57,191 nt of DNA from a virus (Duplodnaviria > Caudoviricetes): positions 1-57,191 of the IMG/VR virus record IMGVR_UViG_3300028394_000089; one strand, 5' to 3'. A program made the translations under genes and the position numbers. The notes below the pieces were generated by a model. The model ran no database searches. It was not told the DNA's origin and saw nothing but the letters and a program-made list of their open reading frames with translations. This document shows positions 37,173-49,408 of the stretch, piece by piece. The first letter of the stretch is position 1, and each line of letters opens with the position of its first letter.

Positions 37173-38025
37173 TTTTTTAGAAATTTTAAATTTTTTATTT
37201 AATTATGAAATATACTCATCTTTCGCCTGTGTTTTGAGAATTATTTCAACGGGTTATTTATTATTTTGTTTATTTTGGATTAGAAAAGACGCTTGGAATT
37301 TTTCGTCTCCAAACGGACCATTCGGAAATAATGACTATAAAAATTTTGCTAAGCAATTTAATTTCCAATTATCATTATTTAGTATTTTTAATGATAGATT
37401 TCCTGCTCAAAAATTTATTTTTATAAGTTTTTATATTTCTGGACTCTTTTCTTTAATTGGATTTTTTACAAATATATCTCTGTTTGTATTTTTAATAATG
37501 TTAATGTCAATACAAAATAGAATTTTACCTATTATTTATAGTGCGGCAGATAGTATTTCAAGAATATTAATCATATGTTTAGCTATAACTGACTGTGGAT
37601 CACAATATTCGCTTGATAATATATTAGGATTATCTTCTAATCAAAATATCATTAATGGAACTGGGATTAGGGTTTTACAAATTAGTATTTGTATGATTTA
37701 TTTTTGGTCTTCTGTTTATAAATTAAGAGATACTTACTGGTTAGATGGTGAAACTATTAAAAATGCTATTGCTACACCGATTTGGGGTACGAGATGGTGT
37801 TTAAAATTTTGGCAGAAAAATATTGTTTCTAAATCTATAACATGGTCTGTATTGATATTTGAATATTTTGCCCCAGCCCTATTCTTCATTAAAGAAACTA
37901 GAAATTTTGCTATTATATATGCAATATTGATGCATGTTTGTATTACAATATTTATGAGAATTGGATATTTTGGTCCTATAATGATAATATCTGTATTAAG
38001 TTTTTGTAACGATTTTTTTAAATGA
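37165..38025 (+). CDS. HTTM-domain membrane protein (vitamin-K-dependent carboxylase/SdpB-like)
   Basis: LRI, LIG..T, R, SLD, Q...IY..S..KL...W.DG, E, H....M.IG.F; multiple TMs. Confidence 0.8.
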   Translation: MISFLEILNFLFNYEIYSSFACVLRIISTGYLLFCLFWIRKDAWNFSSPNGPFGNNDYKNFAKQFNFQLSLFSIFNDRFPAQKFIFISFYISGLFSLIGFFTNISLFVFLIMLMSIQNRILPIIYSAADSISRILIICLAITDCGSQYSLDNILGLSSNQNIINGTGIRVLQISICMIYFWSSVYKLRDTYWLDGETIKNAIATPIWGTRWCLKFWQKNIVSKSITWSVLIFEYFAPALFFIKETRNFAIIYAILMHVCITIFMRIGYFGPIMIISVLSFCNDFFK

Positions 38026-38603
38026 AAATATTAATATTAGGTGGAACATTATTCGTCGGAAAACATTTTGCCAAAGTTCTTAAAGATAAAGGCTATGATA
38101 TTACTTTAGCTAATCGGGGCATTTCTGGAGAAGTCAATATCAAAATAGACAGGAATAACATTGATACATGCAAAAATTTAAATAACAATTATTACGATAT
38201 TATAATAGATTTTTCATGCTATAATTTGGAGCAATTAATTAATACTCTTAATTATGTAAAATTTGATAAATATATATTTATATCGACTAGTGGTGTAGAT
38301 TTCCTACCCTTTCATAATGTCGCGCCAGAACATTACGAAATGGCTATGTATATTTTTAATAAAAAGAAATGTGAAGATTATATAGTAAAAAATATTTCTA
38401 ATCATACAATAATTCGCCCATGTTATATTGTTGGTGAAGGGGACTATACAAATCGTTTTTATAAAAATGGAAATAAGTATTATTGGAATGATGGAAAAGA
38501 ATTAACTTTTTATATTGAAGTAGGTAAGTTTAGTAGTATAATTTTTAATAGTTTTAAAAATAAAGGAGCTAATATTATTAGTCCCTGTAAAGAATTGAAT
38601 TAA
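38022..38603 (+). CDS. short NAD-dependent epimerase/reductase (atypical SDR)
   Basis: ILGGTLFVG, NRG, YIFIST, Y...K..CE, IRP..I.G..D. Confidence 0.82.
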   Translation: MKILILGGTLFVGKHFAKVLKDKGYDITLANRGISGEVNIKIDRNNIDTCKNLNNNYYDIIIDFSCYNLEQLINTLNYVKFDKYIFISTSGVDFLPFHNVAPEHYEMAMYIFNKKKCEDYIVKNISNHTIIRPCYIVGEGDYTNRFYKNGNKYYWNDGKELTFYIEVGKFSSIIFNSFKNKGANIISPCKELN

Positions 38604-38608
38604 AAAAT

Positions 38609-39199
38609 ATGAAACGTAAAGATTGTATTGGTAAAACATTTAATCATTTAACTATTTTAGAAGTGCTTCCGAATGATAAAGTAAAATGTCAATGTACTTG
38701 TGGTACATTAAAATTATTTAATTGGCGAGATATTCGTAGGGGGAGAACCAAAGGTTGTGGTTGTCGCCGCAATACACCAGAATTAAGAGCCTTAGCAAAG
38801 GAAAGGGCAATAGATCTTCAAAAGAAGGGTATATTAAAACGTGGTTATGTTGGAAAAGATGCCAAATGTCCATTTAAATATATTTTACGTACGTTAAATA
38901 AGCCAAATAGAAAACCATGTAATTTAAAAATAGAGCATTTAAAAAAAATTTGGGAAGAAAGCGGTGGAGTTTGTTCATATACAAAAATTAAATTAATTTT
39001 ACCAATTGGATCTGCAAATCCGAATCCCGCAATTTCATATAAAATGGCATCGATAGACAGGATTGATTCTTCAAAAGGGTATGAGCTTGGAAATATTCAA
39101 TACGTTAGTCGTAATATAAATTATGCGAAAGGAATCCTTACTCATCAACAGATGTTAGATTTTATGAATCTTATTAAAGAAGTGGACGTGAGGGGCTAA
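38609..39199 (+). CDS. free-standing HNH-type (homing) endonuclease
   Basis: FNHLT.L, CxCxCG...GCGC N-terminal module; C.YT, SIDRIDSSKGY..GNIQ.V...N..K nuclease module. Confidence 0.8.
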   Translation: MKRKDCIGKTFNHLTILEVLPNDKVKCQCTCGTLKLFNWRDIRRGRTKGCGCRRNTPELRALAKERAIDLQKKGILKRGYVGKDAKCPFKYILRTLNKPNRKPCNLKIEHLKKIWEESGGVCSYTKIKLILPIGSANPNPAISYKMASIDRIDSSKGYELGNIQYVSRNINYAKGILTHQQMLDFMNLIKEVDVRG

Positions 39200-39450
39200 T
39201 TTAAAAACTAATTTCTTAGTATATTCATTAAAGAATATTTAAATTGTGGACTATATCTTCATCTGATTAGTTATATCAGAGCTGGACGCTAATCTGGTTA
39301 TTAAGAGGGCTTTACCTCTCCAGTAGTCTCTGAACCTTCTAAAAATGTATTTTTAGCTTGGCTGCTGATTGGCATATCATATTTTATGATTTAGCTTTCC
39401 AGCAATTCATCCAGTTTTAATCGAAGCATCACTGCTAAGTCAACCCATTG
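39196..39450 (-). mobile_element. group I self-splicing intron (255 nt, ORF-less) in the tmRNA T-loop
   Basis: 5' exon ends in U with a U:G P1 pair (TCAACT/GGTTGA); P AATTGCTGGAAA (39407-39396), Q AATCAGCAGCC (39370-39360), R GTTCAGAGACTA (39335-39324), S AAGATATAGTCC (39259-39248); terminal G at 39196. Confidence 0.92.
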
Positions 39451-39697
39451 AGTTGAACCCCTGTCCATTTAATTTATATTAAAAGGTCTACATGTTTTAG
39501 TTTCTTTAGCATTTTAGCCACCATACGGTAACTTGGACTTTTAGGCTGCTTGGCGACACTAACCTTAGTTTTAAGTCTGCCTATAGATTATTATCGCAAA
39601 TCTACATACGGAGGATTTTTTTTGTTACATTGATATAGTCCACAATTCAATAACCTCTGCTATCAATTAACCCTTAGAGGATCTAGGTTAAAGGATC

Positions 39698-39802
39698 TTA
39701 GGCTGCTAAGAGGTACTCTTCTTCAACTTCCCCGAGGAACTCGGAGGCATTGTTGAAGATATATTCTGCTTCAGCCAAGATTGCATCAGTATTATCTTCT
39801 GC
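39698..39802 (-). other. tmRNA tag reading frame AEDNTDAILAEAEYIFNNASEFLGEVEEEYLLAA*
   Basis: GCA resume codon placed just after pk1 (inferred); open to TAA; ends in LAA. Confidence 0.85.
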
Positions 39803-39987
39803 GTTTGGTTTTTAATCGATTTTTTACGAGGCCATCGATTAACCTCGACATGCGCTTTTAATTTCAACTAAATGTCGAAACCAGTACACGCCCAAAATTT
39901 CAAAGAACTAACTAATGATAAGCTTTATTACACTGTTTGTCAATAAAAAGATTGATATTTAAATAAAAAAAATATAACATTAATATT

Positions 39988-40527
39988 ATGAAAGAACCTT
40001 TTACAATTAATTTAAAAAAATATAATGACTCGCGTGGATATTTTGTGGAAAAATTTAATAAAGAAATCTATAGGCAAGTTACTGATTCTGAAAATGAAAC
40101 TGTTTTACAAAATTGTCCGCAATGGGTGCAAGAAAATTATAGCGTCTCACAAAAAAATGTTCTGCGCGGATTACATTATCAATTAGATCAACCACAGGCA
40201 AAATTAATACATTGTATGTATGGTAAAATAATGGATGTTATTGTAGATTTAAGACTGTTTTCGCCCAATTTCGGCAAACACGAAAAATATTATTTAGATG
40301 ATAGTTCTATTTTATATGTTCCGATTGGATTCGCCCATGCTTTTGTTAGCTTGTCTGATCATACAATTGTTGAATATAAATGTTCAAATTTTTATTTACA
40401 AAAAGACTCTTACGTGTTAGCGTGGAATGATAAAAATTTAAATATAGATTGGGGAATTGATAACCCAATCCTTTCAGAACAAGATTCTAATGCTTTAAGT
40501 CTTGCAGATTGCCCCAAATTTGATTAA
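39988..40527 (+). CDS. rmlC: dTDP-4-dehydrorhamnose 3,5-epimerase
   Basis: [34 protein letters not shown]. Confidence 0.95.
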
Positions 40528-49321: not shown

Positions 49322-49408
49322 GGAAGCGTACTCAAGCGGTTTACGAGAGAAATTTACTAAATTTCCGAGGTCTAAAAGCCTCCGTGGGTTCGAATCCCAC
49401 CGCTTCCT
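49322..49408 (+). tRNA. tRNA-Ser(ACT)
   Basis: GGAAGCG/CGCTTCC, GAAAT-TTACTAA-ATTTC, long variable arm GAGG/CCTC, GTGGG-TTCGAAT-CCCAC. Confidence 0.85.

Follow-up and report, generated by a model that had tools for sequence, protein, structure and literature searches.

The window analysed here is a 57,191-base fragment of the IMG/VR virus record IMGVR_UViG_3300028394_000089 (completeness estimate 33%), and the sequencing runs that contain its DNA are freshwater or lake metagenomes. On the minus strand it carries a phage-encoded transfer-messenger RNA (tmRNA) gene of the known intron form, interrupted by a group I intron, and the 5' exon of this gene holds a perfect 16-nucleotide (nt) antisense to the catalytic core of its own intron. 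The complementarity is probably a non-adaptive by-product, made by template switching or by chance and redistributed by modular recombination, and the helix that it permits would be at most a tolerated folding trap. An earlier note on this DNA had proposed that the pairing gates splicing. The competing fold that it described stands in silico, but the distribution among relatives does not support an evolved splicing gate: the pairing is absent from half of the intron-forms and the exon arm is found in intron-less genes.

The exon-intron complementarity

Both arms are read on the minus strand and are exact 16-nt reverse complements, as the earlier note had reported. The exon arm, AAUUGUGGACUAUAUC, was placed at 39632-39647 by a repeat search, occupies columns 14-29 of alignment A2 and lies 51 nt downstream of the tag stop codon of the tmRNA; the intron arm, GAUAUAGUCCACAAUU, lies at 39242-39257. 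The proposed extension to 19 base pairs (bp) was also recovered, with one G:U pair, between arms at 39632-39650 and 39239-39257 that are 95% complementary and 374 nt apart. Alignment to the Rfam consensus gAAGAUAUAGUCu identifies the intron strand as the 3' strand of P7, or S element, a label based on the P, Q, R and S element naming of the established group I model as set out in PMC3984707. The intron arm consists of the last four nucleotides of J8/7, the P7 3' strand UAGUCC, J7/9 ACAA and a final UU, whose two nucleotides close J7/9 and open P9 in the Rfam alignment. It falls in the most conserved block of the group I family consensus and is identical in all six distinct intron copies observed. 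The native partner of UAGUCC is predicted to be the P7 5' strand GAGACUA, with a bulged A, at 39324-39330 on the minus strand; P7 is a pseudoknot and is unmarked in the Rfam structure line, so this strand was assigned by comparison with the Rfam consensus GUUCAgAGACUA.

In the shuffle test that had been suggested for the repeat, a perfect, non-overlapping inverted repeat of at least 16 nt appeared in 2 of 20,000 dinucleotide-preserving shuffles of the precursor (713 nt, 39183-39895, 36% GC). The exact 16-mer has two copies in the window, one per strand, and none of 100 dinucleotide shuffles gave at least two matches to it, even with two mismatches allowed. Across the whole window, six of 100 shuffles held at least one perfect 16-nt inverted repeat with arms no more than 600 nt apart, against one observed. 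The repeat is strongly non-random locally and mildly so after this look-elsewhere correction.

Contigs of other sequencing runs reproduce both arms, which shows that the repeat is not an assembly artefact, as the earlier note had allowed that it might be. The X3 contig spans 39403-39940, from the exon arm through the 5' splice site, with no differences, and the X4 contig spans 39100-39596 with five, four of which are listed and lie outside 39242-39257, the position of the fifth not being displayed. The exon arm is unchanged in five contigs from four runs, on three flank variants, with the proviso that six contig differences are not displayed and that for X20 record 11 one of these could lie inside the arm. 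The short contigs bearing the exon arm (X4, X19 and X20) stop before the T-loop.

Two mutually exclusive folds had been envisaged for the precursor, and this is borne out: the exon-intron helix and the native core exclude each other because the intron arm holds the P7 3' strand and part of J8/7. The thermodynamic model used is pseudoknot-free and ignores the tmRNA pseudoknots (PK) PK1-PK4, the P3/P7 pseudoknot, tertiary structure and kinetics. In this nested model the minimum free energy structure (-199.3 kcal/mol) contains all 16 exon-intron pairs, with pair probabilities of 0.91-1.00, and the best fold lacking the helix (-189.0 kcal/mol) is 10.3 kcal/mol worse; the isolated 19-bp duplex is assigned -27.4 kcal/mol. 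The alternative fold is, as modelled, energetically competitive with the native fold and strongly preferred.

The local hairpin AUUGA...UCAAU, in which the exon copy was said to sit, is real and forms stem 1 of a covariation-supported H-type pseudoknot at 39611-39651 (minus strand), presumptively named PK3 because of its place in the series that follows the tag. Stem 1 pairs 39651-39647 with 39633-39629, and stem 2 pairs 39643-39637 with 39617-39611, five of its seven pairs being formed in the window. Across an alignment of the window and nine other distinct relatives (10 sequences), 92.5% of the cells in the 12 pairs are paired and 7 of the 12 show changes on both sides; the covariation score was reached by none of 500 shuffles and all slid controls scored far lower. 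The exon arm takes up the entire stem 2 5' strand, together with the last nucleotide of the stem 1 5' strand and the first two of the stem 1 3' strand, and contributes eight paired positions to PK3. The arm is constrained by the structure of the tmRNA itself, with no need of the intron.

Distribution of the pairing among relatives

Relatives were gathered by pattern scans of viral contigs and metagenome contigs followed by Rfam searches of the records. Including the window, the sample comprises 19 tmRNA loci with 16 distinct 5' exons, all from freshwater metagenomes. The PK3 module occurs as type A1 (loop UUGUUGGUAGU) in six distinct sequences, all intron-less; as type A2, that of the window, in six, of which two are intron-forms and four are intron-less; and as type B, which is unalignable, in four, divided equally between intron-forms and intron-less genes.

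Four distinct intron-forms have a complete 5' exon: the window, L044, L025 and L046, which is identical to L047. The window and L044 share module A2 and the perfect 16/16 arm. As this one further intron-form keeps the arm, the gate idea is weakened but not refuted by the remaining two: L025 and L046/L047 have the same intron with an identical intron arm, combined with a module B PK3, and their longest exon-intron Watson-Crick runs are 10 nt and 9 nt, respectively. The corresponding runs in intron-less exons are 8-10 nt (10 exons; L048, L057 and L058 are not among them). The longest run was used as the statistic; RNA.duplexfold of the whole exon against the whole intron gave meaningless giant interior loops. 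Conservation of the pairing wherever the intron occurs, as the gate would predict, therefore fails, the pairing being present in two of the four distinct intron-forms and absent from two. Two further intron-form loci, L043 and L045, are without a 5' exon and their exon arm cannot be scored.

The exon arm also occurs without the intron, at 14-15 of 16 identity, in four distinct intron-less tmRNAs, so that the pairing is not specific to intron-bearing alleles. L048 and L058 carry AAUUGUGGACUGUAUC, which offers 15 Watson-Crick pairs and one G.U to the intron arm, and L014 (identical to L017) and L057 carry AACUGUGGACUGUAUC, with 14 Watson-Crick pairs, one G.U and one mismatch. Two of these intron-less A2 alleles could form the same contiguous 19-bp helix if G.U pairs are counted. 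The empty insertion site, GGGGUUCAACU followed directly by CCCC, is seen in L057 and L058, and the record holding L017 (99% complete, module A2) gave no group I intron match. Present in two of four intron-forms and in intron-less genes, the pairing is therefore not required by the intron and is not limited to genes that bear it, the outcome that the earlier note had listed as refuting its idea. Covariation between exon and intron cannot occur, since the intron arm does not vary.

Within type A2 the arm has no excess of conservation. The window and L044 differ at none of its 16 positions and at 5 of 44 outside it (Fisher p = 0.31), and the corresponding counts are 1/16 and 5/44 for L048 and 2/16 and 5/44 for L014. 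Differences between A1 and A2, meanwhile, cluster in the arm, as in L016 (9/16 inside, 5/44 outside; Fisher p = 0.0008). Module A2 is found with three types of tRNA-like domain (GGGCGUG, GGGGGUG and GGGGAUG) and with different tags, and all intron-forms share the GGGCGUG domain. The tmRNA genes of this phage group thus read as mosaics of reassorting tag, pseudoknot and tRNA-like modules. Two intron-less loci, L023 and L024, have a divergent tRNA-like domain (T-arm region CGGAGGGCAGCACUCCGAC) and Rfam tmRNA scores of 91.9 and 93 bits, compared with 132-145 bits for other intron-less forms.

Wider searches added little to the sample. In a blastn search of 50,697 phage records only the intron core (query 484-704) matched, in unrelated phage introns, with no tmRNA relatives. 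An exact 28-nt junction pattern and two looser junction/intron patterns found one other record only (that holding L002) among viral contigs, and the junction pattern had no match in genome contigs, from which no bacterial relative was obtained. Five genome-contig stretches with a 19-nt intron-arm pattern were rejected as chance matches, having no Rfam family at gathering score, and a metagenome match, L042, was rejected as GC-rich, coding-like and without an RNA family. The intron of L043 is visible in the sequence but is not listed by cmscan at gathering score.

Origin of the complementarity

The distribution is most simply accommodated if the two arms belong to different modules, the exon arm being the core of the A2 variant of the third pseudoknot and the intron arm the invariant catalytic core. 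Reassortment of these modules would leave A2 with and without the intron, and the intron with and without A2, and recombination between PK3 and the T-loop, which are about 190 nt apart, could join or separate them. The complementarity itself would have originated when an ancestor with the intron underwent a short template switch (inverted copying), chance being the less likely source, and would then have spread by recombination. A template switch is favoured because it is precisely in the arm that the A1-A2 differences are concentrated, and template switching is described in PMC8794818 as a source of perfect reverse-complement repeats in RNA genes. Copying in the opposite sense, of the intron arm from the exon, was rejected since GAAGAUAUAGUC is a family-wide consensus.

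Once formed in the precursor, the helix would tie up P7 and J8/7 and prevent splicing, and it is in this sense a potential folding trap. Escape presumably comes from local folding of PK3 and of the intron core during transcription: PK3 would be made 375 nt earlier, leaving half of the arm already paired, and the long-range helix would be a trap that is tolerated. Tolerance is suggested because both A2 intron-forms keep an otherwise intact tmRNA and intron. Each looks functional, with a preserved tag frame, a G3.U70 pair and an intact intron core (Rfam 81.5 and 77.1 bits), and the window precursor presumably splices.

Several observations weigh against a non-adaptive origin. The exon-intron helix dominates the nested thermodynamic model, and the sample consists of 16 distinct sequences only, all of one habitat. 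Position 12 of the arm (39636) is A, giving a Watson-Crick pair, in both A2 intron-forms and G, giving a wobble, in all four intron-less A2 alleles and all six distinct A1 alleles. This pattern is in the direction predicted by selected pairing, albeit with Fisher p = 0.067 (calculated by hand) and with two intron-forms that may share the change by descent. Parsimony at the same position makes G the older state, which does not favour a single template switch as the maker of the whole 16-mer, and the 374-nt spacing is far above the short ranges analysed in PMC8794818. The A1 loop retains seven Watson-Crick and five G.U pairs of 16 in the same register (L015, L016, L019, L021, L023 and L024, the last with six Watson-Crick and five G.U), which is reported here without explanation. 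Furthermore, the L048 exon and the window intron would form a contiguous 19-bp helix of Watson-Crick and G.U pairs, a length reached by 4 of 10,000 shuffles. Chance is a poor explanation in view of both shuffle results (2/20,000 and 4/10,000), and pure chance as the full explanation is set aside, though not firmly, the repeat having been picked from very many windows scanned. Some historical or functional link between module A2 and the group I core is therefore needed.

A functional link could take the form of an evolved cis switch, in which the A2 PK3 loop was selected to pair with J8/7-P7 and so to delay or gate maturation of the tmRNA until the core is freed, for example by SmpB, a chaperone or a shift in temperature. 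In the nested model the helix has a strong thermodynamic preference, the complementarity is non-random in shuffles, and the match is perfect in both A2 intron-forms but includes a wobble in each of the four intron-less A2 alleles, some of which have a mismatch as well; exon-intron pairing also controls group I folding in T4 td as reported in PMC3017892. Such a switch is nevertheless unlikely. The pairing is absent from two of the four intron-forms with the same intron, four alleles have the arm and no intron, and conservation of the arm does not exceed that of its flanks. The window and L044 have a PK3-PK4 block in common, may be one lineage and count as about one, no ligand- or protein-sensing element is apparent, and PK3 covariation accounts for the constraint on the arm without the intron.

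A broader proposal, also judged improbable, is that the A2-type PK3 loop is an evolved antisense to the group I core, acting in cis as a brake that times maturation after infection and in trans as a decoy; carried by the mature tmRNA, such a decoy may be directed against the excised intron or the introns of co-infecting phages. If true, it would explain the 19-bp-capable match in intron-less alleles, the full Watson-Crick match only where the intron is present and the 12 of 16 pairable positions of the A1 loop.

Action in trans taken by itself is highly unlikely. Here the mature A2 tmRNA would pair with the near-universal group I S element GAUAUAGUCC and inhibit splicing or reverse splicing of the excised intron, of other introns of the same phage or of introns of competing phages. 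Intron-less A2 alleles do keep 10 pairs (one G.U) to GAUAUAGUCC, and GAAGAUAUAGUC[C/U] is present in other group I introns of related phages, including the records of L048 and L058. Against this, the 99%-complete record of L017 has module A2 and no group I intron match, half of the arm is paired in native PK3, and the complementarity past the first 11 nt is specific to the J7/9 of the tmRNA intron. Related phage records (those holding L004, L006, L010, L048 and L055) have between one and three additional group I introns inserted elsewhere, and the additional introns recovered (L035-L039, L049 and L059) all have GAAGAUAUAGUC[C/U] with differing J7/9 sequences.

It is scarcely credible that the repeat is instead a DNA-level element whose two arms are bound by a protein such as the adjacent HNH endonuclease or a regulator. 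Two identical inverted sites do lie within 400 bp of the endonuclease gene, but L025 and L046 have that gene and the intron with a single copy of the site, intron-less alleles have the exon copy without the gene, and the intron copy is fully explained as conserved catalytic core. An assembly or chimera artefact, finally, is ruled out for all practical purposes by the contigs of four other runs that reproduce the exon arm, by X4 for the intron arm and by the independent metagenome contig L044, which holds the same pair of arms.

The tmRNA locus and comparison with known systems

Rfam RF00023 matches the tmRNA on the minus strand from 39885 to 39449 (84.0 bits, cut-off 47; model positions 1-374), and the match is without the 3' T-stem and acceptor because the intron interrupts the gene. 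The 5' exon (443 nt, 39451-39893), with boundaries read from the sequence against intron-less relatives, contains the acceptor 5' strand GGGCGUG, PK1, the tag reading frame, PK2-PK4, helix 2 and the 5' half of the T-arm ending in GGGGUUCAACU; its terminus reads AGGGG-UUCAACU. The 13-nt 3' exon, CCCCUCACGUCCA (39183-39195, minus strand), completes the 3' strands of the T-stem and acceptor and supplies a discriminator A, and an identical 13-nt sequence stands after the intron in L025, L043, L045 and L046/L047. In the acceptor stem GGGCGUG pairs with CACGUCC, yielding a tRNA-Ala-like G3.U70, and the complete T-arm AGGGG-UUCAACU-CCCCU appears only after in-silico removal of the 255-nt intron. In intron-forms the 3' CCA is not encoded, the discriminator A being followed by CUU inside the endonuclease open reading frame (ORF; 39180-39183 in the window), and many intron-less relatives encode CCA (loci compared: L014, L015 and L021-L024). 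Covariation in PK2 was seen by eye, without a formal count (CCUCU/AGAGG and CCUAUU/AAUAGG).

The tag reading frame (39698-39802, minus strand) encodes the 34-residue AEDNTDAILAEAEYIFNNASEFLGEVEEEYLLAA by in-frame translation, from a probable resume codon GCA at 39802-39800 to the stop UAA at 39700-39698. The tag ends in YLLAA, and all 16 loci translated keep both the frame and an L[LM]AA ending directly before the stop, with changes that are synonymous and conservative. At 33-35 residues the tag peptide is unusually long; it is also acidic, and the pattern AEDNTD.ILAEAE.IFNN...EEYL[LM]AA is kept across all relatives.

The group I intron (39196-39450, minus strand) has its 3' end set by the 3' exon needed for the T-stem and acceptor. 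Rfam RF00028 matches from 39460 to 39226 (81.5 bits, cut-off 50; model positions 1-253), an alignment that takes in the conserved core elements AAUUGCUGGAAAGC, GGUUCAGAGACUA and GAAGAUAUAGUCC, and no ORF of at least 50 amino acids lies inside the intron. The insertion point follows the seventh T-loop nucleotide; at the corresponding site intron-less relatives read GG[A/G]GUUCAACU followed by C[U/C]CC. In the Rfam alignment P1 is formed by exon UCAACU (39456-39451) and GGGUUGA (39446-39440), with U.G at the splice site, and the omega G at 39196 stands directly before the T-stem CCCC. Contigs of two lake metatranscriptome runs (X19 and X20) match the 5' exon over 39564-39860 at 90-99% likeness in several variants, with word depth of up to about 520, although contigs are no proof of transcription or of its level. 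Among the contigs of these two RNA runs, which cannot show absence, no joint spanning the intron was present. X20 has no contig over the intron while word depth over the 5' exon is high, contigs saying nothing on splicing, and in X19 the intron is covered only by contigs 90-95% alike, which are probably other introns.

Adjoining the tmRNA gene, and convergent with it, is a free-standing HNH-type endonuclease gene (38609-39199, plus strand, 196 amino acids) with PHROG matches to phrog_3322 (endonuclease, 2e-14), phrog_374 (HNH endonuclease, 2.7e-12) and phrog_1035 (endonuclease VII, 8.2e-10); a Pfam search of the protein gave no match. Its last 17 nt cover the 13-nt 3' exon together with the final 4 nt of the intron. 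By tblastn, wherever an intron-form locus has downstream DNA an endonuclease ORF adjoins it, full length beside L025, L046 and L047 (79-84% identity) and partial beside L043 and L045, and none adjoins any of 14 intron-less loci; the L044 sequence stops within the intron and its neighbour is not assessable. A search with the protein found only the record holding L002 and one weak partial match, L041.

The flanking genes are for sugar-nucleotide enzymes on the plus strand, an NAD-dependent epimerase-like protein (38022-38603) and a dTDP-4-dehydrorhamnose 3,5-epimerase (39988-40527; PF00908, 5e-51). ARAGORN called 14 tRNA genes in the window, all on the plus strand and opposite to the tmRNA, including a tRNA-Ser with the anticodon ACU, an unusual A34, at 49322-49408; it missed the tmRNA, presumably because of the intron.

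Intron-form tmRNAs with a group I intron in the T-psi-C loop are described for 883 unique sequences, all interrupted in the T-loop, in PMC11915505. The window shares with them the -1 U that pairs with G in P1 and the omega G before the 3' exon, and most of the introns described there are, as here, without an endonuclease ORF. That paper covers bacterial genomes, whereas the present gene is phage-encoded and its endonuclease gene lies outside the intron. Insertion after the seventh loop nucleotide would correspond to position 8 of that paper, which it gives for Saprospiraceae only, if the two numberings match. No exon antisense to the intron core is mentioned in the passages of it that were consulted, and a literature search found no description of phage intron-form tmRNAs.

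The ORF-less intron and its free-standing endonuclease look like a collaborative-homing pair aimed at the tmRNA T-loop. The arrangement described under that name in PMC3984707 has in common with the window an ORF-less intron, an HNH-type gene adjoining the interrupted gene and strict co-distribution among relatives. Here a tmRNA gene would be the target, and 13 nt of its 3' exon are shared with the endonuclease gene, which runs on the opposite strand.

As the locus shows, large freshwater phages harbour tmRNA genes of the intron form, whose modules reassort and which, on the reading above, may extend collaborative homing to a tmRNA target. If the pairing were functional, this would be the first structural RNA to contain an antisense against the guanosine-binding core of the intron that interrupts it, and a simple natural system for exon-context gating of a ribozyme. 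As a by-product, it offers a natural case in which a ribozyme-containing precursor apparently tolerates a non-native long-range helix of great stability, and L025 and L046, with the same intron and no helix, are ready-made controls for co-transcriptional folding.

In Clostridioides difficile, a c-di-GMP-II aptamer beside a group I intron reportedly engages in an alternative pairing that decides productive splicing; in the window no aptamer or sensor is evident and the alternative partner is the loop of a tmRNA pseudoknot. The earlier note knew of no description of such a switch. This holds in so far as none was found for P7/J8/7 in a tmRNA in the literature searched, but exon-intron pairing that blocks group I folding is documented in T4 td and Tetrahymena pre-rRNA (PMC3017892, PMC3984707). 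In T4 td, the upstream exon can pair with the intron and prevent the native catalytic fold (Semrad and Schroeder, as cited in PMC3017892 and PMC3984707), so that both cases have exon-intron pairing set against the native fold of a phage group I intron. There, according to the same accounts, a translating ribosome clears the exon, whereas the arm of the window lies in a non-translated pseudoknot; no ribosome can act on the precursor because the arm is 51 nt past the tag stop in the pseudoknot of a structural RNA. The target in the window is, as far as its sequence tells, J8/7-P7 itself, and the helix is a perfect 16-bp one. In Tetrahymena pre-rRNA, exon hairpins interfere with formation of the 5' splice site helix P1, as reported in PMC3017892. 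An inactive precursor population arising from exon context is common to both, being predicted for the window, but there the competition is local and for P1, and here it is for the guanosine-binding helix, 375 nt away. With the template-switch mutations described in PMC8794818, the repeat shares a perfect, sharp-edged reverse-complement copy and a coinciding cluster of substitutions relative to a sister module; it differs from those described there in that its arms are 374 nt apart and its helix disrupts two native structures instead of building one.

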